Part shown: one piece after another, positions 1,536 to 22,002 of the stretch | Numbering within the stretch: position 1 is the first letter of the stretch | Layout of the letters: each line of letters opens with the position of its first letter | DNA from: Feifania hominis | Lineage (GTDB): Bacteria; Bacillota; Clostridia; Oscillospirales; Feifaniaceae | Direction of reading: 5' to 3' | NCBI RefSeq assembly: GCF_014384765.1 | Contig: NZ_JACRSP010000001.1 | Coordinates: forward strand, 484,759-508,758 | Length of the DNA: 24,000 bases | Made by a program: the position numbers and the translations under genes | The notes under the pieces: generated by a model | Seen by the model: only the letters and a program-made list of their open reading frames with translations | The model's database searches: none | What the model was told of the DNA's origin: nothing

Positions 1536-1985
1536 ATGATTTATACACCTTTGACGAATAAGGCAATGCGCATTGCCTATGCTGCTCATCAGGGCCAGAC
1601 TGACAAAAGTGGCCAGCCCTATATCTTCCATCCCTATCATCTGGCAGAGCAGATGACAGACGAAGTGACCATCTGCGTGGCTCTGCTTCACGATGTAGCA
1701 GAGGATACTGATGTAACCTTGCAGGAACTGGCTCAGGAGTTCCCAAAGGAGATTGTAGAGGCCTTGCGTCTGCTGACGCATACAGTAGATATGGATTATT
1801 TTGACTATGTACGAGCAATTTGTAAAAATCCGGTGGCAAAGGCAGTAAAACTGGCTGATCTGGCCCATAACGCCGACGAGAGTCGGTTTTCCGGCTGTAA
1901 AGATGTGGAAGAAGCGCAGTTTATTCTACGGCGGGAAAAGTATAGCAAAGTAAGAGCAATTTTGGAGGGTAGTGACACGGACTAA
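1536..1985 (+). CDS. Stand-alone HD-domain protein, RelA/SpoT-type (p)ppGpp hydrolase-like (small alarmone hydrolase family)
   Basis: The 149-aa product contains AYAAHQGQTDKSGQPYIFHPYHLA...ICVALLHDVAEDTDVT, matching the HD motif pattern of the SpoT/Mesh1 hydrolase domain. GGAGG lies 7 nt upstream of the ATG. Hairpin terminators flank the gene on both sides. GC is visibly lower than in the neighbouring genes. Confidence 0.7.
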   Translation: MIYTPLTNKAMRIAYAAHQGQTDKSGQPYIFHPYHLAEQMTDEVTICVALLHDVAEDTDVTLQELAQEFPKEIVEALRLLTHTVDMDYFDYVRAICKNPVAKAVKLADLAHNADESRFSGCKDVEEAQFILRREKYSKVRAILEGSDTD

Positions 1986-2043
1986 TGAAGTGAGTAATGA
2001 AATGGATTACTCTTTTTCGGTAGCTGTCCCAGGTATCCATCAG

Positions 2044-2075
2044 ACCACCCGGCAAGAAGCCGGGTGGTTTTTTTG
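2044..2075 (+). terminator. Rho-independent terminator after the HD-domain gene
   Basis: A perfect 10-bp stem (accacccggc / gccgggtggt) with loop aagaa is followed directly by a T-run (tttttt). Confidence 0.85.
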
Positions 2076-2128
2076 TTCTAAAAGTGGACAAAGCCCAATA
2101 GGATATACAGAAAAAAGGAGATGGAAAC

Positions 2129-3127
2129 ATGACGGGACGTGAGAGAAGAAGAGAGCTGTTTTCTCTGCTGCCGCCGCGCGTGTCGGCTTTGATTGAACAC
2201 ATCGGAAGCGAGCCGCTCGAGGCGCTCGAGGAGATCCGCCTACGGGCACAGCGCCCTGTGTCACTGACTCTTGCGGGCCACAACTATTTTATCAGTGAGG
2301 ACGCCGAGATCACCTACGACGCCTCGCGCGCGGTGTGTCTCACGCCGCAGGAGCTTGAACAGTGCTATCTGCGCGCCTGTGAAAACTCGGTTTACACCTT
2401 TCAGGAGGATATTGCCAGAGGCTTTGTCACTGTCAAGAACGGCAACCGGGTCGGCATTGCGGGCAGTGCTGTCGTCGAGGCAGGCAGAGTGGTCGGCTTT
2501 CGCAACATCAGCTCTCTGTGCCTTCGCTTTGCGCGTGAGATTCGCGGCGCGGGCGAGCAGCTCTTTGAGCGGCTCTACCCGGATGGTACCGTGGTCGGCA
2601 CACTCATTGTCTCCCCGCCGAAGATGGGAAAGACGACGCTGCTGCGCGATCTCATTCGCACGGTGAGCTGCCGCGGACTCCGCGTCGCCGTCGTGGACGA
2701 GCGCGGCGAGCTTGCGGCGATGCGAGGCGGTGCTGCCTGCAGTGATATCGGCCCCTGCACCGATGTGCTCGATGCGATTCCGAAAGCCATCGGGTGCGAA
2801 TACGCCATACGGAATCTCTCACCGGAGGTTATCGCCTTTGACGAAATCGGCTCCATGGGGGAAGTCGAGGCGGTTTTGCAGTCTCTCAATGCCGGTGTGC
2901 CGGTACTCACCACCTGTCACGCCGGCTCCTGGGAAGAGCTTTGGCGCAGGCCGCCGCTGAGAGCTCTATTGGGGAGCAGCGCGATCTGTAAAGTCATAAA
3001 GCTTAACAACAAAAAGACCGGTGTCGTTGACGCCATCTGGGACTGGAGGAGCGACGATGTTCAAAATGGTGGGAATGTGTCTGATTCTATTGACAACCAC
3101 ATTTGCCGGATCGGCGCTGTCCGCTGA
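2129..3127 (+). CDS. spoIIIAA: Stage III sporulation protein AA (ATPase)
   Basis: Walker A SPPKMGKTTLLRDL and a Walker B-like EVIAFDEIG are present. It is the first gene of an eight-gene set with spoIIIA order and sizes. AGGAG lies 8 nt upstream of the ATG. Confidence 0.9.
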   Translation: MTGRERRRELFSLLPPRVSALIEHIGSEPLEALEEIRLRAQRPVSLTLAGHNYFISEDAEITYDASRAVCLTPQELEQCYLRACENSVYTFQEDIARGFVTVKNGNRVGIAGSAVVEAGRVVGFRNISSLCLRFAREIRGAGEQLFERLYPDGTVVGTLIVSPPKMGKTTLLRDLIRTVSCRGLRVAVVDERGELAAMRGGAACSDIGPCTDVLDAIPKAIGCEYAIRNLSPEVIAFDEIGSMGEVEAVLQSLNAGVPVLTTCHAGSWEELWRRPPLRALLGSSAICKVIKLNNKKTGVVDAIWDWRSDDVQNGGNVSDSIDNHICRIGAVR

Positions 3128-3551
3128 TCTCAAGAGGAGAATTCGTGATCTGCGCCTGTGCGCCGATCTGATTGCAAAGATAGGCCGTGAGATCTCCTAC
3201 AGCCGCTGCCCCATCACGGAGGTGCTGGGGAGATGCGCGCAGGAAAAAAAGTATGCGCCGCTTCGGTTTTTGCAGCTTTCGAAGCCCTTCGACAGTGAGA
3301 GATTTCGTCTTCACTATGAGAAAAATCGGGATTCTCTATGCCTGAAAAACGAGGACCACGATCTGATTTTGGAATTCTTCGCCGACTTTGGCAAGAGCGA
3401 TGCAGTGGGGGAGCTGGCGCGCTGCGGTAAGTATGAGGCGGAGCTGGCGCGCCGCGTGGAAGAGCTCGAGCCGGCTATCGAAAAACAGGCCAAGCTCTAC
3501 CGCTCGCTCGGTGTGTTGTCGGGCGTGTTTCTCTCGATTCTGATGGTTTAG
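3057..3551 (+). CDS. spoIIIAB: Stage III sporulation protein AB
   Basis: MFKMVGMCLILLTTTFAGSALS is an N-terminal TM segment, and the ~165-aa helical body matches the usual SpoIIIAB layout. GGAGGAG lies upstream of the ATG at 3057. The ORF-track start at 3021 has no RBS. Confidence 0.8.
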   Translation: MFKMVGMCLILLTTTFAGSALSADLKRRIRDLRLCADLIAKIGREISYSRCPITEVLGRCAQEKKYAPLRFLQLSKPFDSERFRLHYEKNRDSLCLKNEDHDLILEFFADFGKSDAVGELARCGKYEAELARRVEELEPAIEKQAKLYRSLGVLSGVFLSILMV

Positions 3552-3576
3552 CGAAACGGAAAGGAGCCTCAACAGT

Positions 3577-3771
3577 ATGGATGTCAATCTCATCTTCAAA
3601 ATCGCGGCAGTCGGCATCATTGTCAGTGTTTTAAATCAACTTTTGACCAAGGCCGGCCGGGAGGAACAGGCGCTGATGACGACGCTGACTGGCCTGATCG
3701 TTGTGCTGCTCATGGTGATCCGGGAGATCAAGTATCTCTTCGATATGATACAGAGCACGTTTGGGCTCTAG
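3577..3771 (+). CDS. spoIIIAC: Stage III sporulation protein AC
   Basis: A 64-aa protein with two TM segments (IFKIAAVGIIVSVLNQLL...LTGLIVVLLMVI), with position and size typical of SpoIIIAC. AAGGAG RBS. Confidence 0.85.
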   Translation: MDVNLIFKIAAVGIIVSVLNQLLTKAGREEQALMTTLTGLIVVLLMVIREIKYLFDMIQSTFGL

Positions 3772-3780
3772 GGGGAGACC

Positions 3781-4164
3781 ATGAACATCTTTGCCCTGTG
3801 CGGCTTCATCATCGTAGCAGCGCTGATTTCACTGACACTGCGCGACTACAAAAAGGAGTATGCGGTGCTCATCGGACTCGCCGTCTGCATCTTCGCGGTG
3901 CTCACGGCGCTGCCCGACATACTCAAGCTCTTTCGTTTTATCAGTGACACGGCAAACTCTGTCAGCGGAATGGGCGGCAAGCTCGAGCCGCTTTTGAAAG
4001 CTCTGGGGATTGCCTTTGTCACGGAGATTGCCTCCAATCTCTGCATTGACACGGGCGAGCGGTCCATGGCGGGCAAGATCGAGCTGCTCGGCAAAGTCTC
4101 GATCCTCATTGTCTCGCTGCCGCTCGCGCAGCAGGTGCTCGATGTCATCAAAGGACTTTTGTAA
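3781..4164 (+). CDS. spoIIIAD: Stage III sporulation protein AD
   Basis: A 127-aa polytopic membrane protein in the fourth operon position. GGGGGAG RBS. Confidence 0.85.
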   Translation: MNIFALCGFIIVAALISLTLRDYKKEYAVLIGLAVCIFAVLTALPDILKLFRFISDTANSVSGMGGKLEPLLKALGIAFVTEIASNLCIDTGERSMAGKIELLGKVSILIVSLPLAQQVLDVIKGLL

Positions 4165-4177
4165 ATGAGAGGATGTT

Positions 4178-5311
4178 ATGAAACAGGCGTTTCGATTTTT
4201 GGCGGCGGCCGTTGTGCTGATGCTTCTGTGTTCCCTAACAGCCCATGCAGTCGATGTCAACGAGATCTACTCGGATGTCGCCGACCGCTTCGGGGTGAGC
4301 GAGCTGATCGACGCCGCGCCTGACGCTGCGCGTGGGTCGCTCTCCGGCGAGCAGGTGAGCCCGAGCGGGCTGCTCAACCTGCTGTCCATGAACAATGTAT
4401 TAAATCTTCTGACAAACGGTCTCTTTGGCGTACTGGGCGAGTGTCTGTCGGGCTGTGCGGTGCTGCTCGTGGCGGTTCTGGTCTTTTTGCTGCTGGCGGG
4501 ACTTCGCGACTCATTTCACAGCAGCGCCATTGTGCCAACGTTCAATCTGGTCGCGGTGTTGACCATCTCGCTTGTGGTATACGGCATCATTTCGGGCGCA
4601 TACAGCGCCGCATTTACCGCCACAAAGGACATCACGGCGTTCATCTCCACACTCATGCCGGTGATGGCCGCCACCATGGCAGCCGGCGGGGAAGTGGTAT
4701 CGGTGGGAATCCTGCCGCCGGCAATCCTGACGGCGATCAATCTGCTCTCCTGGCTGAATACCTCCGTCTTTCTGCCCACGCTCAACTTCTACTTTGCGCT
4801 GAGTTTCATCTCGGCTGTCAACCCGAGACTCAATCTCAAAGAGCTGATGAATTTTATCAAAAAGGCGCTCATGTGGGGCATGGGGATTGCGACGACGATT
4901 CTCGTCGGGCTGCTGTCGCTTCAGAAAATGATCACCGGAGCGTCGGACAACATCACGGGCCGCGCGGCCAAGTTTGCGCTCTCGAGTTTTGTACCCATCA
5001 TCGGCGGCGTACTCAAAGACGCCTTTGATACGGTGGCAGGCTGTGTCTCAGTGATCAAGGCGACCTGCGGTGTGTTCGGCATTGTGGTCATCATCTACAC
5101 CATGCTGCCGATTCTGGCAAGAGTCATTCTGTACAATGTCGGCTTTCGTCTCTCCTCGTCCGTTGCGCAGATCAGCGGCCAGAGCAGTGTCTCGAATTTT
5201 CTCGACTCCGTGTCCAACATCTGGAGTATTCTGACGGCAATTCTGGTCAGTGAGGGGGTCTTTGCCATCGTCTCGGTGGCAGTGGTCATCTCAACGGGAG
5301 GTGGGACATGA
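4178..5311 (+). CDS. spoIIIAE: Stage III sporulation protein AE
   Basis: A 377-aa product with a signal-peptide-like N-terminus (LAAAVVLMLLCSLTAHA) and multiple TM segments, in the fifth operon position. Confidence 0.85.
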   Translation: MKQAFRFLAAAVVLMLLCSLTAHAVDVNEIYSDVADRFGVSELIDAAPDAARGSLSGEQVSPSGLLNLLSMNNVLNLLTNGLFGVLGECLSGCAVLLVAVLVFLLLAGLRDSFHSSAIVPTFNLVAVLTISLVVYGIISGAYSAAFTATKDITAFISTLMPVMAATMAAGGEVVSVGILPPAILTAINLLSWLNTSVFLPTLNFYFALSFISAVNPRLNLKELMNFIKKALMWGMGIATTILVGLLSLQKMITGASDNITGRAAKFALSSFVPIIGGVLKDAFDTVAGCVSVIKATCGVFGIVVIIYTMLPILARVILYNVGFRLSSSVAQISGQSSVSNFLDSVSNIWSILTAILVSEGVFAIVSVAVVISTGGGT

Positions 5312-5793
5312 TGGCGTTTTTAAAAGACTGGTGTATCACCGTTGCGGCAGCGGCCATCATTGTCGGCTTTCTTGAGGCGCTTGTGCCGGCGCAGAGCATG
5401 CAGAAGACCATGAAGACCGTGACGGCGCTCTTTCTTCTGGCAATTCTCTTCGCGCCGCTCGCCAAGCTCAAGGGGCTGCCTCTCTACTATAAAAATGAGA
5501 TTCAGACCGGCGCCTATGAGCAGCTTCCCCAGAGTGTGAGCGACCAGACAAGGCAGCAGGTGCTTGAGTTGACAAGGACCGAGCTGATTCACCAGATTGA
5601 AACTCTGGCGTCGGCCAGACTGGGGAAAAATATCAATGTAATTGATGTGACAATGAATTTCGCGGACAACGATCTCATATATTTAAGCGAGGTTGTCATT
5701 TCGCAGCATGACGATCTTGAAAAGGATATGGAAAAGCTGACATCCGTGCTGCGCGCGGAGCTCGGCGAGGACATTGTGATCACAGTGAAGTGA
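5308..5793 (+). CDS. spoIIIAF: Stage III sporulation protein AF
   Basis: A 161-aa product with two N-terminal TM segments and a soluble C-terminal domain. Its start overlaps the spoIIIAE stop (ATGATG/TGA). Sixth operon position. Confidence 0.7.
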   Translation: MMAFLKDWCITVAAAAIIVGFLEALVPAQSMQKTMKTVTALFLLAILFAPLAKLKGLPLYYKNEIQTGAYEQLPQSVSDQTRQQVLELTRTELIHQIETLASARLGKNINVIDVTMNFADNDLIYLSEVVISQHDDLEKDMEKLTSVLRAELGEDIVITVK

Positions 5794-5804
5794 GGTGCAA
5801 AAGA

Positions 5805-6350
5805 ATGGAAGACTGGAAAGACCGACTGACACGTCTCTTCAAGGGAAAGCGTCTGACGCTGTTTCTGATTCTGGGACTCATCGGCATTGCCCTGATTCTG
5901 CTCTCGGAGTTCTGGCCGGCCTCAAAGCCCAAACAGAGCGATCAGAGCACCGTGACAGCAGCTGATATGGAGCGCGATCTTCTCAAGCTCATTTCCAATG
6001 TGGAAGGCGTTGGCAAGGCGGAAGTCATGATCACACTCGCGACCGGCGTTGAGAATGTCTATGCGACCGAACAACGGGTCAATCAAAATGTGCTCTCAGA
6101 CAGTACAAACGGCGTGTTGGGGCGAACGGAGAACAAAAACGACACCCAGGACACGGTCATTGTCGTACGCGACAGCAGCGGGGCTGAGGCTCCCATTCTC
6201 ATCAAACAGATCGAGCCCAAGGTGCAGGGCGTCGCGGTCATCTGCGAGGGGGCAGACAGCCCGTATGTCAAAAGCAGCATCGTCGAGATGGTGACGACAA
6301 TCTATGATATTTCATCCAACAGAGTCTGCGTAATCAAAAAGAACAGTTGA
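5805..6350 (+). CDS. spoIIIAG: Stage III sporulation protein AG
   Basis: One TM segment (LTLFLILGLIGIALILL) precedes a C-terminal domain ending VQGVAVICEGADSPYVKSSIVEMVTTIYDISSNRVCV, typical of the SpoIIIAG ring-forming domain. The ATG at 5805 has GAGGT 7 nt upstream. The GTG at 5790 is less likely. Confidence 0.75.
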   Translation: MEDWKDRLTRLFKGKRLTLFLILGLIGIALILLSEFWPASKPKQSDQSTVTAADMERDLLKLISNVEGVGKAEVMITLATGVENVYATEQRVNQNVLSDSTNGVLGRTENKNDTQDTVIVVRDSSGAEAPILIKQIEPKVQGVAVICEGADSPYVKSSIVEMVTTIYDISSNRVCVIKKNS

Positions 6351-6363
6351 GGAGGAACGAATC

Positions 6364-6924
6364 ATGGCATTCAAAAAGAGGCAGCTCATTCTCTTATCAC
6401 TGGTGGCGGTAATTTGTGTGGCGGCATTTCTGAACTGGAAATTTAACACCACCGACAACCCGCTCGGTCTGCCCGACACAGAGGACAGCGAGTCCACGGC
6501 AAAGAATTTGGGTGAGGCGAAGCTGGTCAACGGTGAGGGCGGCGTCGACGTCGAGGTGAGTGCGCCGGTCGAATCTGACGAATATTTCACCGAGGCGCGG
6601 CTCAACCGCCAGAAGACCCGTGATGAGGCACTTGCTCTGCTCGAGGAGGTCACCGCGGACAAGAACAACCCCGAGGATATCCGCAAGCAGGCGGCAAGCG
6701 ACATTTCGCAGATTGCAAAGTCGGTTGAAACCGAGGGCAAAATCGAGAATCTTGTAAAGGCAAAGGGATTTGACGACTGTGTCACCGTTCTGTCCACCGA
6801 CAGCATTCACGTCATTGTCAAGACAAAGGGGCTTGTGGACAGCGAGGTGGCCCAGATCAAGGAGATTGTGCTCGGCCAGACCGAACTTACGGGCGAGCAG
6901 ATCAAAATCGTCGAGATCAAATAG
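6364..6924 (+). CDS. spoIIIAH: Stage III sporulation protein AH
   Basis: An N-terminal TM segment (LILLSLVAVICVAAFL), an acidic linker and a C-terminal YscJ/FliF-like region (EARLNRQKTRDEAL...). It is the last gene of the operon. GAGGAGG RBS. Confidence 0.75.
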   Translation: MAFKKRQLILLSLVAVICVAAFLNWKFNTTDNPLGLPDTEDSESTAKNLGEAKLVNGEGGVDVEVSAPVESDEYFTEARLNRQKTRDEALALLEEVTADKNNPEDIRKQAASDISQIAKSVETEGKIENLVKAKGFDDCVTVLSTDSIHVIVKTKGLVDSEVAQIKEIVLGQTELTGEQIKIVEIK

Positions 6925-7530: not shown

Positions 7531-7992
7531 ATGAAACGCACCGAAGCGAGAATCGAGACGTTCAAGCTCGTCTACGAGTATGATTTTCACCGGGAGAAGA
7601 CACCGCAGCAGATCTATGAGATGGCGGTGACCGAGAGAGAGCTCTGCGACGACACCTACATCAGAGAGACCTTTGACGGCGTTGTGAAAAACATGGACCA
7701 AATTGATGAGATCATCAAGGAAAACGCCATCGGCTGGAAGATCAACCGCATCTCCCATGTGGCGCTGGCCGTCACGCGGCTTGCCATCTACGAGATGCTC
7801 TATTCGCACGATATTTCCCATGCCGTTGCAATCAACGAGGCGGTGGAGATCGCCAAGCTCTACGAGGGAAAGGACGCAGCCTCTTTCATCAACGGTATTT
7901 TGGGCTCGGTTTCCAAGAAGAACCCGAAGACCGACCTTGAGCCTGCGGCCGAGAAAAAAGAGGAGCCGTCAGTCGGCGAGGCGGGGGAGTAA
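7531..7992 (+). CDS. nusB: Transcription antitermination factor NusB
   Basis: RTEARIETFKLVYEYDF, RISHVALAVTRLAIYEM, AINEAVEIAKLY and FINGILG follow the NusB pattern. GGAGG precedes the ATG at 7531. The ORF-track start at 7489 has no RBS. Confidence 0.9.
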   Translation: MKRTEARIETFKLVYEYDFHREKTPQQIYEMAVTERELCDDTYIRETFDGVVKNMDQIDEIIKENAIGWKINRISHVALAVTRLAIYEMLYSHDISHAVAINEAVEIAKLYEGKDAASFINGILGSVSKKNPKTDLEPAAEKKEEPSVGEAGE

Positions 7993-8954
7993 TGGCCTGC
8001 TACCTCGGAATTGACACCAGTAATTACACCACTTCCGTGGCGAGATACGACAGTGACAGCGGCCGGATGACCGGCCGGCGAAAGCTGCTGCCGGTCGAGG
8101 GAGAAAAGACAGGCTTGCGTCAAAACGAGGCTGTTTTTTTGCATAACCGGCAGCTGCCCGAGCTGCTGGAAGAACTGCTTTGCGACGGCGCCCGACCGGA
8201 CGCCGTCAGTGTGTCACGCGCCCCACGGGACTGTGAGGGTTCCTACATGCCCTGCTTTACCGTGGGTCACGGCTATGCGAGAGCACTCGCGGCCGCCTTG
8301 TGCGTGCCGCTCTTTGAGACGTCCCACCAGAAGGGGCATGTGCTAGCGGCGCTCTACGGCGCCGATTCGCTTGCGCTGCTGCGCGAGCCCTTTTTGGCCT
8401 TTCATGTCTCGGGCGGTACCACGGAGCTTCTGCATGTCACGCCGGATGGTGACGAACGAATCAAAATCAGTCTGCTCGGGGGGACGCTCGATCTCCCGGC
8501 GGGACAGGTCATCGACCGGCTGGGCGTTTCCATGGGCTTTTCTTTTCCCTGCGGTGCTCAGATGGAGCAGTACGCCATCGAGAATCCCGACGGGCAGACA
8601 CTCCGGCCGCTTGTCACATTGCGCGACGGTGGCTTTCATCTCTCGGGACTCGAGAACAAGGCGCACGAACATCTTGCGAGGGGCGCCGGGCGGACAGCAG
8701 TGATTCAATTTCTCTTCGACAGCATAGGAGAGAGTATCCGGGCTCTGACAAAACAGGCGCTCTCAGATATGGAGGTCAAAAAAGTCGTCTTCGCGGGCGG
8801 CGTCATGTCGAACGCGCGAATCAAGGCGCTGCTCGGCGGAGATTTACCGGCTGTTTTCACACCGAGCGCCTATGCCGCCGACAATGCGATGGGAGTGGCG
8901 CTCTGGGGCGCGCTCAACAGGGAGGAGCTATGCAAAACGAAAGTGCGGTTGTGA
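7992..8954 (+). CDS. TsaD/Kae1 (peptidase M22, ASKHA-fold) family protein, divergent
   Basis: It has LGIDTSNYTTSVA (ASKHA phosphate-1-like N-terminus), SHQKGH (an HxxxH metal motif as in the TsaD family) and a C-terminal FAGGVMSN. The start overlaps the nusB stop (TAATG). The exact function cannot be assigned from sequence alone. Confidence 0.5.
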   Translation: MACYLGIDTSNYTTSVARYDSDSGRMTGRRKLLPVEGEKTGLRQNEAVFLHNRQLPELLEELLCDGARPDAVSVSRAPRDCEGSYMPCFTVGHGYARALAAALCVPLFETSHQKGHVLAALYGADSLALLREPFLAFHVSGGTTELLHVTPDGDERIKISLLGGTLDLPAGQVIDRLGVSMGFSFPCGAQMEQYAIENPDGQTLRPLVTLRDGGFHLSGLENKAHEHLARGAGRTAVIQFLFDSIGESIRALTKQALSDMEVKKVVFAGGVMSNARIKALLGGDLPAVFTPSAYAADNAMGVALWGALNREELCKTKVRL

Positions 8955-10394: not shown

Positions 10395-11282
10395 ATGAAT
10401 TTTGATCGGAGAATGCAGGCACATCTGGATCTAACCGAACATGCGCTTCGCGCCTATCTGCCCAAGGAGCGCCTTGCACAGCAGCGTATTGTCGAGGCGA
10501 TGGAGTATTCGCTTCTCGCCGGCGGCAAGCGGGTTCGTCCCGTGCTGATGCTGGAATTTTGCAGGGTGTCAGGCGGGGAGGAGCGGCTTGTGCTGCCGCT
10601 GGCGGCGGCACTTGAAATGATTCACACCTACTCGCTGATTCACGATGATCTGCCCTGCATGGACAACGACGATCTGCGCCGCGGGCGGCCCACCAGCCAC
10701 CGTGTTTTCGGAGAGGCCATGGCGACGCTTGCGGGCGACGCCCTGCTAAACTACGCCGCTGAGACGGCACTCGGCGCAGATGGGCCGGACTATCTCGACC
10801 CCGCGCTGCGGCTGCGCGCCGTATGCGAGCTCTTCGGCGCGGCCGGGGTCTATGGCATGATCGGCGGTCAGGTGCTTGACATGGAACGGGAAAACAGAGC
10901 TCTGTCGCTCGATCAGGTACTTGAGACCCACAGGCTCAAGACCGGCGCTCTGATCTGCGCCGCGGCACGAATCGGCGTGATCTGCGCCGGCGCAAGCGAC
11001 GAGCTGCTCGAGGCGGCAACCGAGTACGCACAGAAAATCGGGCTCGTGTTTCAAATTGTCGATGACGTGCTCGACTGCAGCGGCAGCGCCCAGCAGCTCG
11101 GCAAGCAGACCGGAAGCGACGCCAGAAGCGGGAAGACGACGTTTGTCACGCTGCTCGGGGAGCAGGGGGCAATGGAGCGCGCGAGAGAGCTGACCGACGA
11201 GGCAAAACAGGCGCTCGCCCCTTTTGACGACGCCTCTTTTCTCTGTGAGTTTGCGGATCGTCTGTTGGTACGCCAAAGATAA
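10395..11282 (+). CDS. ispA: Farnesyl/geranyl-diphosphate synthase (polyprenyl synthetase family)
   Basis: The first Asp-rich motif is LIHDDLPCMDNDDLRRGRPT and the second is FQIVDDVLD. Size (295 aa) and position after xseB are conserved. Confidence 0.9.
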   Translation: MNFDRRMQAHLDLTEHALRAYLPKERLAQQRIVEAMEYSLLAGGKRVRPVLMLEFCRVSGGEERLVLPLAAALEMIHTYSLIHDDLPCMDNDDLRRGRPTSHRVFGEAMATLAGDALLNYAAETALGADGPDYLDPALRLRAVCELFGAAGVYGMIGGQVLDMERENRALSLDQVLETHRLKTGALICAAARIGVICAGASDELLEAATEYAQKIGLVFQIVDDVLDCSGSAQQLGKQTGSDARSGKTTFVTLLGEQGAMERARELTDEAKQALAPFDDASFLCEFADRLLVRQR

Positions 11283-11294
11283 TGGAGGGCGATT

Positions 11295-11741
11295 GTGAGC
11301 AATATTGTCAAGGAACTGACAGGCAACTACATTTTGAACTGTGCGGTCATCACCTGGGCCATTGCACAGATTTTAAAGGTTTTTACCTATCTACTCGTAA
11401 CGAAAGAACTGAAGCTCAGCCGCCTGCTCGGCTCCGGCGGCATGCCGAGCTCCCACACGGCCTTTGTCGCAAGCGCGACCATCGCCGTCTACCGTGTTGA
11501 GGGAATACACTCCGTGGCGTTCGCCATCATGTTTGTCATTCTGATGGTTATCATCTCGGACGCGGTCGGCGTGCGCCGTCAGGCGGGGGAACACGCAAGG
11601 GTTCTCAATATCATCATGGAGAACTGGGAACAGTCCAAGAAAAAGCCCATTGACAAAAATCTCAAAGAGCTACTCGGCCACACGCCGTTTGAGGTCTTCG
11701 GCGGCTTTCTGCTCGCCATCATCATGGCTTTTTTCTACTGA
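11295..11741 (+). CDS. Divergent PAP2 / acid-phosphatase-related membrane protein (DUF212, YuiD-like)
   Basis: A 148-aa polytopic protein with GGMPSSHTA and SDAVGVRRQAGEH motifs characteristic of the DUF212 / divergent PAP2 family. GGAGGG lies 5 nt upstream of the GTG start. Confidence 0.75.
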   Translation: MSNIVKELTGNYILNCAVITWAIAQILKVFTYLLVTKELKLSRLLGSGGMPSSHTAFVASATIAVYRVEGIHSVAFAIMFVILMVIISDAVGVRRQAGEHARVLNIIMENWEQSKKKPIDKNLKELLGHTPFEVFGGFLLAIIMAFFY

Positions 11742-11754
11742 ACAAACCGCGATT

Positions 11755-11783
11755 TGAATATTGGCGCAGGATATGGTACAATA
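11755..11783 (+). promoter_or_regulatory. Near-consensus sigma-A promoter directly upstream of the large non-coding region
   Basis: TTGAAT (11755-11760), a 17-nt spacer, then TACAAT (11778-11783). The predicted transcription start is near 11790. Confidence 0.6.
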
Positions 11784-11789
11784 ATTTCT

Positions 11790-12436
11790 GTCGCGGTGTT
11801 TTGCCGCGGCGCACGCTGTTTGACAAAAACGGTGGCGCAGTATTCTAGTCAGTGCTATCAGACTCCAGGGCGGGCCTAAAAATCCGCTAAAGGGCACTTC
11901 GATGAAACTTCTTGTGCCTGCTTTTTACGCCCAGTTTAGGGTGGGTGCTGGAAGGTAGGTGGCCGGGCCCTCTGTAATGGCATATGGATGCGGACCCGTT
12001 CACCAGTGAGACCTGGTTGCGTGGGCTGCCCGGGGAACTTTTCCAAAAGGGACAGTCTACGGGCCAGGGTGAAACCTGTTTTGCGATGCTTTGGTGTTGT
12101 GGACAGAGTAGCCTGCCTTGAGTGGGTTTGGCGAATAGGGGATCAGGCCGTCGGCGCATGGCCGTGTGCCGGCCGCTATTGCCCTTTGAAACCAAGTCTG
12201 CAAAAGAGGATAAGGTCTGATGTGACTGTAGAGGAAAACTCCTAGACTGTTCGAGAGAGACATTGCAGGGATTGCAGTGCGGACTCAGTGGTCATCGAGT
12301 ACCGGTACCGGCGACGATACCGGCGTGAATGTAAAGGGGAACCGCCCTCATGGCGACAGGGGGTATTTCACGCAGGGAAATCCTACTCGACCTTAAGCCG
12401 CAAGATTTACCTGTCATGCCGCCACCGACTTTTTTT
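11790..12436 (+). ncRNA. ole: Large structured non-coding RNA, OLE (ornate, large, extremophilic) RNA class candidate; boundaries approximate
   Basis: A 727-nt gap (11742-12468) lies in an otherwise tightly packed operon and has no credible ORF or RBS. It has its own promoter. It contains many stable local helices (for example 11893-11920, 11959-12005, 12147-12175, 12262-12280, 12362-12383), a helix pairing 12351-12360 with 12410-12424, and a T-tract at 12430-12436. It is in the same orientation as its neighbours. The context ispA - RNA - small 4-TM protein - dxs - tlyA - nadK - argR - recN matches the published OLE/oapA locus. No covariance-model search was possible. Confidence 0.75.
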
Positions 12437-12477
12437 ATTTCTTACAGTGAGCTGAATTTGTATTTTGGGTGAGGAAT

Positions 12478-13092
12478 ATGCCTGACGACAGTCAGAAGAA
12501 ACAGGAATCTACCAGCAAGAGCAACCGGATCAAAACACCCGGTCAAATGAAAAAGAAAATGAATATCAAGTGGGTCATCACAACGATTACACTCACGTTT
12601 ACCCTTTCGGTGGTGTTCTATCTGATCTCCGATTCGGTTCTGCCGTTATTGAGTGTGGTCAGTTCGTTTGTTGTCCTGCTTGTTTTTATATTTATCGGTA
12701 TTTTTTTTGATTTGATCGGCACCGCCGTGCAGACGGCGGACGAGAGGCCCTTTCACTCGATGTCGGCGCGCAAAGTCGACGCGGCCCGTGAGGCGGTATC
12801 GCTGATTCGCAATGCCGAGAAAGTTGCAAACGTCTGCAATGATGTCATCGGGGACATCTCCGGCATCATCAGCGGTTCGACCGGCGCGATCATCATCTCC
12901 TTTCTCATCGCGTCCAATCCCGGTCTCAACAGCATCGTGGTCGGCACGGTTCTGACCTCCCTCGTCGCGGCGGTGACCGTCGGCGGCAAGGCTGTGGGCA
13001 AGACCATCGCCATCAACAATGCCAACACCATCATCTACGCGGTCGCGCGGGTGATTTCGCTGTTTAAAAAAATATTCAGAGTATCGAGGTAA
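12478..13092 (+). CDS. oapA: Small four-TM membrane protein, OLE-associated protein A (OapA)-like
   Basis: A Lys-rich N-terminal tail precedes four hydrophobic segments: WVITTITLTFTLSVVFYLI, VVSSFVVLLVFIFIGIFFDLIG, ISGIISGSTGAIIISFLIA and IVVGTVLTSLVAAVTVGG. It lies directly downstream of the RNA and directly upstream of dxs, as described for oapA. The start is ambiguous between GTG 12469 and ATG 12478. Confidence 0.65.
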   Translation: MPDDSQKKQESTSKSNRIKTPGQMKKKMNIKWVITTITLTFTLSVVFYLISDSVLPLLSVVSSFVVLLVFIFIGIFFDLIGTAVQTADERPFHSMSARKVDAAREAVSLIRNAEKVANVCNDVIGDISGIISGSTGAIIISFLIASNPGLNSIVVGTVLTSLVAAVTVGGKAVGKTIAINNANTIIYAVARVISLFKKIFRVSR

Positions 13093-20081: not shown

Positions 20082-20150
20082 AGACTATCAAAATAGTCTT
20101 GACATTCTCAGACGATTGCGATAGTATGATGATAAACTATTGCAATAGTC
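20082..20150 (+). promoter_or_regulatory. Promoter plus palindromic operator candidates for the BlaI-family repressor operon
   Basis: TTGACA (20099-20104), 17 nt, then TAGTAT (20122-20127). A perfect inverted repeat AGACTAT-caaa-ATAGTCT (20082-20099) abuts the -35. An imperfect inverted repeat TTGCGATAGT...ACTATTGCAA (20116-20125 / 20136-20145) spans the -10. A perfect 12-bp palindrome CTATTGCAATAG lies at 20137-20148. ATAGT/ACTAT half-sites recur. Confidence 0.6.
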
Positions 20151-20167
20151 CAAAAGGAGAGAACCAT

Positions 20168-20539
20168 ATGGGAATCAAACTGTTTGACTCCGAGCTGAAA
20201 GTCATGGAGATACTCTGGAGAGAGGGTGATACCACGGCCAAACAGCTCTCGCTCAAGCTGGGTGAGAGTGTGGGCTGGAATAAGAACACAACCTATACTG
20301 TCATAAAGAAGTGTGTGGAAAAGGGCGCTATAGAGCGCCGGGAGCCCGATTTTCTCTGCCACGCGCTGATCACCAGGCAGCAGGCGCAGCAGCAGGAGGT
20401 GGACGAGCTGATCGATAAGCTGTTCGACGGCTCGGCCGAGGGCCTCTTCGCGGCGCTGCTGAGTCGTCGGGGTGTACCACAGGATGTGGTGCAGCGCCTG
20501 CGAGACGAGGTGGAGCGGGCGAGCGGAGGCGCAGTATGA
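20168..20539 (+). CDS. BlaI/MecI/CopY-family transcriptional repressor
   Basis: The 123-aa product has the winged-helix N-terminus SELKVMEILWREGDTTAKQLSLKL...WNKNTTYTVIKKCVEKGAIERRE typical of the penicillinase-repressor family. AAGGAGA RBS precedes the ATG at 20168. ATGA overlap with the downstream M56 gene. Confidence 0.8.
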   Translation: MGIKLFDSELKVMEILWREGDTTAKQLSLKLGESVGWNKNTTYTVIKKCVEKGAIERREPDFLCHALITRQQAQQQEVDELIDKLFDGSAEGLFAALLSRRGVPQDVVQRLRDEVERASGGAV

Positions 20540-22002
20540 TGCTTCTGAGCTTTGTTCAGACAACCGTTCTCGGCGGCGTGATGATTGCCGTGATTCTGCT
20601 TTTGCGTGCCGCGCTGAAAGGCCGCCTTGGCGCGGGACTTTTTCGTGTCCTGTGGGCTCTTGCGGCGCTGCGGCTGCTCATTCCGGCCGCCATTCGAGTT
20701 TCACTGCCGGTTTATCCGATATTGTCGTCACCTGTCACCGGGTCGGCGCACGGCTCCGACACCTTGACGCGCGAGCTTCTAGCGAAGCTGCCGGAGAATC
20801 TTCAAAGTGTTCTCCCAGCGGTACATGGTACGACAGCCGCAATACCGGCAGGCATGCTCTTCTGGCTTTTCGGCTGCGCAGCGGCGACCCTCTATTTCGC
20901 TGTGACCTATTGCCGCTGCAGAGCGGAACTTCGGACCTCTCTGCCCGCCGACTGTGCTGCGGTCAACTGCTGGATTTCCCGCCATGCCGTCACAAGAAAG
21001 ATTGAAGTGCGTGTCTCGGACAAAATTGCAACGCCGCTGACCTACGGCATTTTTCATCCCGTCATTCTGCTGCCAAAGCAGACAGACTGGACCGACGAGC
21101 GGCAGCTCGACTTTGTGCTCACCCATGAATGGGTGCACATCAGGCGATATGACGCGCTCTATAAGCTCATTCTCACCGCGGCGCTCTGCCTGCACTGGTG
21201 CAATCCGCTTGTCTGGGTGATGGCCCTTGTCGCAAACAGGGATTTGGAGCTCTCCTGTGACGAGCAGGTGCTGCGCGCAGCAGGGGAGCAGCAAAGACAG
21301 GCCTATGCGCTGACGCTGCTGACCCTGCAGGAACGCAGAAATCGCCGCACAACACTTTACAGCCACTTTGGGAAATACCCCATTGAAGAAAGGATAACTG
21401 CCATTATGAAATACAAAAAGACATCGCTTCTGGCGGTGGTTCTCGCGGTACTTTTGGCCGCCGCCATGACGACCGCTTTTGCCCTGATGCCCCAGCAGTC
21501 GGAGGAGCCCGCAGACGGCTCCGTACCGATCGCCCCGATTGAACCGGTCAGCAGCGGGGATTCCCCACCTTTGACAGGTGGGAAAACTCTGCTCTGCTGG
21601 CCTGCGGAGGACTGCTATCTGGTCACAGCGAGCTTTGGGCTCTCAAGGCCGGACGGCAGTGAGATGGACCACATCACCATCAGCGGAGAAAATGCCAGAC
21701 ATGCTCCCGTTTTGGCCGCTGCCGACGGTATAGTCAGCTTTGCGGACTTTGATGGAACGAACGGCAACTGCATCGTGATCGACCACATCAACGGACTGCG
21801 CACCGTATACTCCCACTGCGCCAAAATCGATGTCAAAAAGGGCGATACCGTCAAGGCGGGAGATGCCATTGCCACAATCGGCAGCTCAGGCAGCGCCACC
21901 GGCCCCTGTCTCGGCTTTGCCGTCTATGAAGATGACATCGCCTGCGACCCTGTTTCTCTGATGCCTGATTCCGTCATCGAAAAGCTCAGCTGCTTGAAGT
22001 AG
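20536..22002 (+). CDS. BlaR1/MecR1-like M56 membrane metalloprotease with a C-terminal degenerate LytM (M23) domain
   Basis: The N-terminal TM segments and zinc motif LTHEWVHIRRYD (HExxH) are typical of peptidase M56. After a further TM segment, the C-terminus (APVLAAADGIV...NGNCIVIDHINGLRTVYSHC...GDAIATIGSSGSATGPCLGFAV) aligns with the M23/LytM fold. However, HxxxD is replaced by HITIS and HLH by CLG. Confidence 0.75.
   Translation: MMLLSFVQTTVLGGVMIAVILLLRAALKGRLGAGLFRVLWALAALRLLIPAAIRVSLPVYPILSSPVTGSAHGSDTLTRELLAKLPENLQSVLPAVHGTTAAIPAGMLFWLFGCAAATLYFAVTYCRCRAELRTSLPADCAAVNCWISRHAVTRKIEVRVSDKIATPLTYGIFHPVILLPKQTDWTDERQLDFVLTHEWVHIRRYDALYKLILTAALCLHWCNPLVWVMALVANRDLELSCDEQVLRAAGEQQRQAYALTLLTLQERRNRRTTLYSHFGKYPIEERITAIMKYKKTSLLAVVLAVLLAAAMTTAFALMPQQSEEPADGSVPIAPIEPVSSGDSPPLTGGKTLLCWPAEDCYLVTASFGLSRPDGSEMDHITISGENARHAPVLAAADGIVSFADFDGTNGNCIVIDHINGLRTVYSHCAKIDVKKGDTVKAGDAIATIGSSGSATGPCLGFAVYEDDIACDPVSLMPDSVIEKLSCLK

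Follow-up and report, generated by a model that had tools for sequence, protein, structure and literature searches.

What does the one long gap in a closely packed gene cluster of the human-gut anaerobe Feifania hominis encode? The window analysed here, a stretch of 24,000 nucleotides (nt) of contig NZ_JACRSP010000001.1, carries tightly spaced genes from nusB to tyrS. The open reading frame (ORF) table confirms both this spacing and the boundaries of the sole long intergenic stretch between those two genes, as described earlier from the letters of the DNA without database searches (the sequence-only reading): the gap runs from 11742, after the stop codon of the gene at 11295-11741, to 12468 or 12477, depending on which of two start codons is taken for the gene that follows. 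OLE RNA, the ornate, large, extremophilic RNA proposed for this position, belongs to a family that was described in 2006 and is curated in Rfam. The best explanation overall, held at a probability of about 0.93, is that the gap holds the gene for a full-length OLE RNA, transcribed on the + strand.

The whole window was scanned against Rfam 15, and a single match rose above threshold, to the OLE model RF01071. The match scores 445.3 bits (gathering score 50; E = 6.9e-128) and extends over model positions 1-616 of 616 with no truncation, a significant covariance-model match over the entire model, which defines the element as follows.

11816-12441, + strand: OLE RNA gene, full-length type, 626 nt matched to Rfam RF01071.

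The length agrees with that of a family of about 600 nt in which roughly a quarter of positions are near-invariant. When the 159 consensus pairs of the model are transferred to the window, 142 are canonical, 14 are mismatched and 3 fall in gaps; in 38 of the canonical pairs both bases depart from the consensus, yet pairing is kept. The window is identical to the consensus at 226 of the 249 highly conserved (upper-case) positions and shares all 107 invariant columns of an alignment of 60 OLE sequences, and its score lies in the same range as those of its full-length relatives (424-456 bits). The locus is a genuine gene for a full-length OLE RNA. It belongs to an already known class, as an ordinary member with a few small idiosyncrasies and not as a new kind of element, and any Rfam scan recovers it as such. 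The end-to-end match bears out the class named by the sequence-only reading, which was also right in the accession it gave, in the strand, in the approximate ends and in the gene context.

Compensatory changes among homologues support the fold. Metagenome contigs scanned for the invariant box GCAGTATTCTAGTCAG gave 120 stretches, treated as OLE-bearing loci L007-L126, and three further full-length OLEs were taken from genome contigs located via the OLE-associated membrane protein A (OapA); this genome-contig scan with OapA reached at least four distant relatives, at 38-48% identity among the matches listed. One metagenome stretch (L090) carries two inverted OLE copies at mirror-image positions, 1614-2278 (+) and 5483-6147 (-), which probably arose from a hairpin artefact of assembly and not from true duplication. 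With a 90% identity filter applied, 59 OLEs and the window were aligned by MAFFT (alignment A1, n = 60), the window being at most 65% identical to any of the others. The Rfam pairs and the closing helix P1 were projected onto this alignment, giving 162 pairs in 24 helices. Standard pairs form in 85.5% of cells, compared with 40-47% when the 3' partner is slid by 1-3 columns; 133 of the 162 pairs are changed on both sides (79-101 when slid), and the covariation score is 0.476 (0.11-0.17 when slid), comparisons that favour the unslid register, since the projected structure derives from aligning the window sequence to the Rfam model. None of 500 column shuffles reached the observed values. Despite the register bias, the changes on both sides are far above the controls, many helices are supported by covariation, and the region is structured RNA far beyond chance; the covariation that the sequence-only reading proposed to test for among homologous regions is present.

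The helix table, together with the model alignment for P7, resolves the RNA into the following elements.

11831-11836, + strand: 5' strand (GGUGGC) of the closing helix P1, which pairs with GCCACC at 12421-12426 and is absent from the Rfam consensus structure.
11869-11888, + strand: P4 hairpin, with the conserved A-rich loop CCUAAAAA at 11875-11882.
11908-11954, + strand: P5/P5.1 long hairpin, loop GCCCA at 11929-11933, 18 of 20 pairs canonical; predicted kissing-loop partner.
11958-12004, + strand: P6/P6.1, loop AUGGCA at 11977-11982, 14 of 14 pairs canonical; the other predicted kissing-loop partner.
12012-12068, + strand: P7 hairpin, with a 13-nt loop insertion relative to the Rfam consensus.
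12076-12106, + strand: P8 hairpin, 13 of 13 pairs canonical (helix 11, 91% paired).
12115-12210, + strand: P9 long arm, palindromic GGCC loop at 12159-12164, 31 of 35 pairs canonical; predicted self-kissing dimer contact.
12259-12420, + strand: 3' part of the RNA, which forms part of domain 2 in the literature.
12302-12323, + strand: P13, with a GNRA loop (GCGA) at 12311-12314.
12323-12330 with 12365-12373, + strand: P14.
12344-12364, + strand: P14.1, with a GNRA loop (GCGA) at 12353-12356.

P1 (helix 1) is paired in 96.1% of A1 cells, with 5 of its 6 pairs changed on both sides, and P5/P5.1 (helix 4) pairs in 96% of cells, covariation being seen at 13 of its 17 pairs. The 3' part is enclosed by long-range helices pairing 12259-12269 with 12410-12420, 12278-12282 with 12398-12402 and 12295-12300 with 12385-12390 (P12.2), and its helices 18-20 are 91-98% paired with abundant covariation. 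The P7 tip, where the 13-nt insertion lies, is hypervariable across the family (A1 columns ~250-310).

Contacts in the OLE homodimer, determined by cryo-EM and summarized by Lyon and Breaker (2025), are made by the A-rich P4 loop (contact 1), the P5.1/P6.1 kissing loops and the palindromic P9 loop (PMC12265935). All four sequences occur in the window in their common forms: the P4 loop CCUAAAAA is the commonest form (43/60 OLEs), the P5.1 loop GCCCA is identical in 58/60 and the P6.1 loop AUGGCA in 43/60, and the P9 GGCC is present in 54/60. Assignment of the P5.1/P6.1 pair relies on loop identity and not on a complementarity score, a score for at least 4 nt of Watson-Crick complementarity (seen in 8/60) being ill suited to loops whose obvious complement is only GCC/GGC. 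As read from its sequence, the window RNA carries every loop that mediates homodimerization in the cryo-EM structures. OapB binding in Halalkalibacterium halodurans needs the P13 GNRA tetraloop and a single-base bulge, with the P14.1 GNRA loop as a weaker site (PMC7936274); both tetraloops are present here as GCGA.

The same helices settle the type. P7 and P8 are dispensable in natural OLE variants (PMC12265935): variant 1 OLEs have shortened P7-P9 and often no OapB site, and variant 2 OLEs are without P7 and P8 (PMC11332333). These variants belong to the same family and share their conserved core nucleotides with the window. The window RNA retains P7 (12012-12068), P8 (12076-12106), a long P9 (12115-12210) and both GNRA loops, and is therefore of the full-length type as defined in PMC11332333 and neither variant 1 nor variant 2.

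Six helices had been paired by hand in the sequence-only reading, and two of them belong to the covariation-supported fold. The hairpin at 12147-12175 is the tip of P9 (12144-12158 with 12165-12179), and the helix placed at 11959-11968/11996-12005 is P6, drawn one base out of register (true positions 11958-11967/11995-12004). The other four do not survive. The 5' arm of the gggcac/gtgcct helix at 11893-11920 lies in a conserved joining region that is unpaired in the consensus and its 3' arm belongs to P5, and the hairpins at 12262-12280 and 12362-12383 and the helix 12351-12360/12410-12424 clash with 12259-12269/12410-12420, 12278-12282/12398-12402 and P14/P14.1. Since four of the six helices were not real, the correct class call rested on context and not on the hand-drawn fold.

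The expected partner gene lies directly downstream on the same strand, its start 36 nt past the end of the OLE model.

12478-13092, + strand: oapA, OLE-associated membrane protein A, 204 amino acids (aa) counted from the ATG, with a GTG in the same frame at 12469.

An ORF matching an OapA profile follows OLE directly on the same strand in 77 of the 82 loci with enough sequence; the profile was built from homologues and used in place of single-sequence tblastn, which under-detected OapA (19/85 loci). At the remaining five loci (L010, L011, L048, L052 and L110) no such ORF follows directly, for which rearrangement, a divergent OapA or an assembly problem are possible explanations. The protein had been noted as a small four-transmembrane (TM) protein, and it carries the DxxxD motif (D122-V-I-G-D126) that is the hallmark of OapA, for which CorB (7M1U) is the structural neighbour (PMC11332333). 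The motif falls within CNDVIGD, one of the blocks invariant in 42 OapA homologues; the others, FD, PFH and TVGGKAxGK, are likewise all present. One of its 2,275 homologues is 100% identical and carries the NCBI annotation 'CNNM domain-containing protein [Feifania hominis]'. On Pfam CNNM the protein reaches 28.2 bits, just below the cut-off of 28.4, a sub-threshold behaviour described for OapA by Fernando and Breaker (2024; PMC11332333), whose study counts 2,822 OLE hits. No NCBIfam model recognizes OapA or the DUF212 protein encoded upstream of the RNA.

The AF2 model of OapA (pLDDT 86.5) contains long helices at residues 30-57, 60-86, 113-146 and 152-180, and together with the partial CNNM match in Pfam describes a small four-TM protein without CBS or CorC domains. 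A profile of the OapA sequence found no match in the PDB. The six best Foldseek hits in the PDB are all CNNM-type TM domains (among them MtCorB 7M1T and 7M1U, and CorC 7CFG and 7CFF), with TM-scores of 0.41-0.52, probabilities of 0.77-1.00 and E-values of 0.08-1.6, and on these weak E-values point to a CNNM-like fold with CorB as the closest solved structure. By its sequence and predicted model, the downstream four-TM protein is a genuine OapA, and the gene is intact beside OLE with all invariant residues kept. The NCBI model of the protein is 177 aa long and starts 27 codons downstream of the ATG at 12478; the longer form has a K/R-rich N terminus and a GGTGA Shine-Dalgarno-like sequence 5 nt before its ATG.

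Upstream, the gene next to the RNA is not ispA, as the sequence-only reading had it; a membrane-protein gene intervenes, and ispA, encoding farnesyl pyrophosphate synthase, lies one gene further away (10395-11282).

11295-11741, + strand: DUF212 (divergent PAP2 family) membrane-protein gene, Pfam PF02681, 142.5 bits; immediate upstream neighbour of ole.

Of 45 non-redundant metagenome loci, 8 have DUF212 immediately before OLE, or roughly one sampled lineage in six, so the adjacency is a recurrent minority arrangement, and ispA occurs within 1.5 kb upstream of OLE in 21 of 27 non-redundant loci. No paper linking OLE RNA with DUF212, yuiD or PAP2 was found in the searchable literature, and the DUF212 gene is regarded as context only, not as a demonstrated part of the system.

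In full, the gene order is gatB, an HD-domain gene, spoIIIAA-AH, an Asp23/yqhY-like gene, nusB, a TsaD-like gene, xseA, xseB, ispA, DUF212, ole, oapA, dxs, tlyA, nadK, argR, recN, tyrS and a BlaI/BlaR1-like pair, with dapB/dapA on the opposite strand. Published OLE neighbourhoods hold genes for isoprenoid synthesis, DNA repair, translation, sporulation and cell-wall stress, and nusB, xseA, xseB, ispA, dxs, tlyA, nadK, argR, recN and the Asp23/yqhY-like gene are all associations described there (PMC12265935). F. hominis (Clostridia, Eubacteriales, Feifaniaceae) was cultured from the human gut (PMC8140505) and belongs to the Bacillota, as expected of an OLE host, which is typically an anaerobe or an extremophile. 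Within the 24-kb window, the only sequence searched for them, no oapB (ybzG), oapC (ybxF) or mpfA was found.

Three further features of this neighbourhood may be recorded. A complete spoIIIAA-AH sporulation operon lies at 2129-6924, upstream of the Asp23-nusB cluster, which fits the reported correlation of OLE with sporulation genes. The gene at 7992-8954 encodes a 320-aa protein with a moderate match to the TsaD family (71 bits), and relatives of it occupy the same position at 17 other OLE loci; the usual occupant of this position in OLE neighbourhoods is, we take it, folD. Beyond tyrS (region 20099-22002), genes for a BlaI/CopY-like repressor (20099-20539) and a BlaR1-like sensor overlap at the start of the latter, and the C terminus of the sensor is an M23 peptidoglycan peptidase domain, not a penicillin-binding domain.

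How the RNA might begin and end is indicated by three elements at its borders.

11754-11782, + strand: sigma-70-like promoter candidate, TTGAAT-17-TACAAT, with a TG extended -10 and a predicted start at about 11789-11791.
11790-11810, + strand: extra 5' leader hairpin with an 8-bp G+C-rich stem (RNAfold of 11783-11836), located after the promoter candidate and before the OLE model begins.
12430-12436, + strand: U7 tract, read from the sequence, directly after the 3' strand of P1.

The promoter-like sequence had been noted before and is indeed present at these positions, but it is not significant by itself, because the single promoter-like site in the 1.2 kb from 11500 to 12700 compares with 0.9 expected in shuffled sequence. 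Across the family, promoter-like sites occur within 150 nt upstream of OLE at 33 of 53 non-redundant loci compared with 14% of control windows (Fisher p = 6e-15), an enrichment to which composition contributes, because the control windows are mostly coding DNA. The ole gene of H. halodurans is reported to have its own promoter (PMC9723947). In the window, transcription of OLE may proceed from the promoter candidate, by read-through of the nusB-to-recN cluster, or by both. The distance from the end of the -10 element to the conserved GCAGUAUUCUAGUCAG box is 54 nt, compared with 12-32 nt in most other OLE loci, where the element lies 20-40 nt nearer to the RNA. At the other end, the tract, earlier listed as T7 in the DNA and found where it had been placed, may stand at the 3' end of the RNA or serve as a partial terminator; with a comparable T-rich tail in only 17/60 OLEs it is not characteristic of the family, and no canonical terminator hairpin was called at the OLE 3' end by the consensus scan.

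This copy departs from its family at two sites of accessory-protein binding. For P13, the Rfam alignment forces a bulge, which leads to four mismatches; the hairpin folded alone gives a clean stem (-11.1 kcal/mol) whose internal loop is a symmetric 1x1 C·A. In minimum-free-energy folds of the isolated hairpins, a one-base 5' bulge is found in 36/60 OLEs and the (1,1) loop in the window only (1/60). The single-nucleotide bulge is thus lacking here, a feature of the OapB site and not a family criterion. The second site is the alternative kink-turn (k-turn) bound by OapC, made up of a C-G pair, a 3-nt bulge and G·A pairs, to which J5/6 supplies one strand and J4a/5 the other (PMC9723947). J5/6 is GUA in the window, unique in the set (1/60), and UUAA in 32/60; the joining region between P5 and P6 is shorter than in the family. 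With a 5' strand of UC-GAU-GA (11899-11905) and a 3' strand of GUA-GG, not UUAA-GG, a C-G pair, the GAU bulge and one G·A pair of a k-turn can still be drawn by eye. In another 12 of the 60 OLEs (L008, L011, L023, L037, L049, L050, L052, L060, L065, L095, L122 and L124), an extra hairpin of 17-30 nt with covarying stems replaces the UUAA in J5/6 (A1 columns ~147-176), falling exactly at the one OapC k-turn strand.

Nothing observed speaks against the identity of the RNA; several of these observations make parts of the wider picture less secure. P13 is without the single-nucleotide bulge whose role in OapB binding in H. halodurans is reported to be critical (PMC7936274), and J5/6 gives the OapC k-turn a strand one base short of the usual length. 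The promoter match, taken by itself, is no better than chance. The Foldseek E-values relating OapA to CorB are weak, although the top six hits agree, and the transporter-regulation mechanism discussed below is one that we infer. The departures in P13, J5/6, P7 and the leader leave membership of the family unaffected.

In the alternative that survives best, though it is unlikely, the RNA would be a natural variant with remodelled accessory-protein interfaces, and with the P13 C·A mismatch and the shorter k-turn strand the particle might assemble differently, or without OapB or OapC. Separately, the DUF212 protein, as a PAP2-like phosphatase, could be an unrecognized functional partner connected to polyprenyl-phosphate metabolism; polyprenyl-phosphate is the cell-envelope lipid carrier, and DUF212 would, if this were true, link the OLE particle to it.

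Quite improbable is a second alternative, in which the gap works in cis as a 5' leader (riboswitch or attenuator) that controls oapA-dxs, rather than giving the RNA of a trans-acting ribonucleoprotein (RNP). It lies on the strand of oapA and 36 nt upstream, a position that fits such a role, and the U7 tract after the closing helix could cause partial termination. Yet no Rfam cis-regulatory family matches and OLE is the sole match; no canonical terminator hairpin is called at the 3' end, the U-rich tail is confined to 17/60 OLEs, and the literature describes a stable and abundant RNA within an RNP (PMC12265935, PMC9723947). A trans-acting OLE RNA may still have a side effect on read-through into oapA.

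Still less probable is a decaying, non-functional OLE remnant, an RNA pseudogene kept by its operon position alone. The four mismatches that the Rfam alignment forces in P13, the unusual J5/6 and the 14 mismatched and 3 gapped consensus pairs could be read in this way. They are outweighed by a score of 445 bits equal to that of full-length relatives, by the 91% of highly conserved bases and 89% of pairs that are intact, by the refolding of P13 into a good hairpin (-11.1 kcal/mol) and by an intact oapA with all invariant residues present. In addition, the OLE sequence is 100% identical in two independent Logan metagenome assemblies of the same species from other samples, which is weak evidence against decay because divergence is low. 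Last, that one of the three listed ORFs of at least 60 aa (11988-12245 on the + strand, and 11887-12195 and 12057-12263 on the - strand; 68-102 aa), all of which do exist in the gap, encodes a real small protein can be dismissed, as none has a Pfam match, conservation follows paired columns with compensatory changes and not codons, and other OLEs carry many indels in the P7-P9 tips that the ORFs span.

Among known systems, the closest is the full-length type of OLE RNA, studied in H. halodurans, Clostridium acetobutylicum and C. botulinum, with which the window RNA shares the full model match, covarying helices, conserved loops, GNRA loops on P13 and P14.1, oapA directly downstream and an isoprenoid, DNA-repair and translation neighbourhood. 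It differs from this type in the P13 C·A loop, the J5/6 GUA, the 13-nt P7 insertion, the longer leader with its extra hairpin and the DUF212 gene between ispA and ole. GOLLD, ROOL and the raiA motif resemble OLE in being large, highly structured and non-coding, and GOLLD and ROOL form homo-oligomers (PMC12286853); these RNAs show no relation to OLE in sequence or structure and no link to oapA, and none of the three was matched by the Rfam scan of the window. The MpfA, CorB and CNNM Mg2+ transporters (PDB 7M1T, 7M1U and 7CFG) have the CNNM-type transmembrane fold in common with the window OapA, whereas OapA has four TM helices and the DxxxD motif and lacks a CBS pair or CorC domain; in place of those domains, OLE systems bind a 600-nt RNA.

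In other species, OLE RNA is abundant, binds OapA, is localized to the membrane, dimerizes, and binds OapB, OapC and bS21 (PMC12265935, PMC7936274, PMC9723947), and when the RNP is disrupted, through the RNA or a partner protein, cells tolerate ethanol, cold, high Mg2+ and poor carbon sources less well (PMC12265935). The experimental record of a stable, abundant transcript, of its place at the membrane and of the stress phenotypes comes from H. halodurans only. By analogy with the H. halodurans and Clostridium RNAs, the window RNA would dimerize and be anchored in or at the membrane by OapA, its particle would recruit OapB, OapC and bS21, and it would help the cell to cope with alcohol, cold, excess Mg2+ and poor carbon sources. 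OLE RNA reportedly spans the membrane, according to a recent proposal. In the mechanism judged most likely, though given somewhat less than an even chance, OLE RNA would be the sensory and regulatory module of an OapA divalent-cation transporter: OapA would form the transmembrane module of a CNNM/MpfA-type transporter, and the RNA dimer would supply the sensing and regulation that CBS/CorC domains provide in MpfA-type transporters. Support for it comes from the anticorrelation of OLE with MpfA across genomes, MpfA being the proposed all-protein counterpart (PMC12265935, PMC11332333). OLE may instead be a ribozyme or have a broader 'bTOR' signalling role.

Among bacterial non-coding RNAs whose biochemical function is not known, OLE RNA is one of the largest and best conserved. 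To this the locus adds no new principle: a routine Rfam match, it has the partner gene and the neighbourhood that one expects. It is of modest practical use, in that a cultured anaerobe of the human gut, F. hominis, is seen to carry a full-length OLE/OapA system, its oapA being annotated only as 'CNNM domain-containing protein'. For specialists, three leads stand out: the P13 bulge that this copy has naturally lost, the k-turn strand that is one base short and the DUF212 gene that recurs next to ole. The natural P13 variant, with a C·A mismatch where the bulge would be, could serve to work out the rules by which OapB recognizes OLE RNA.

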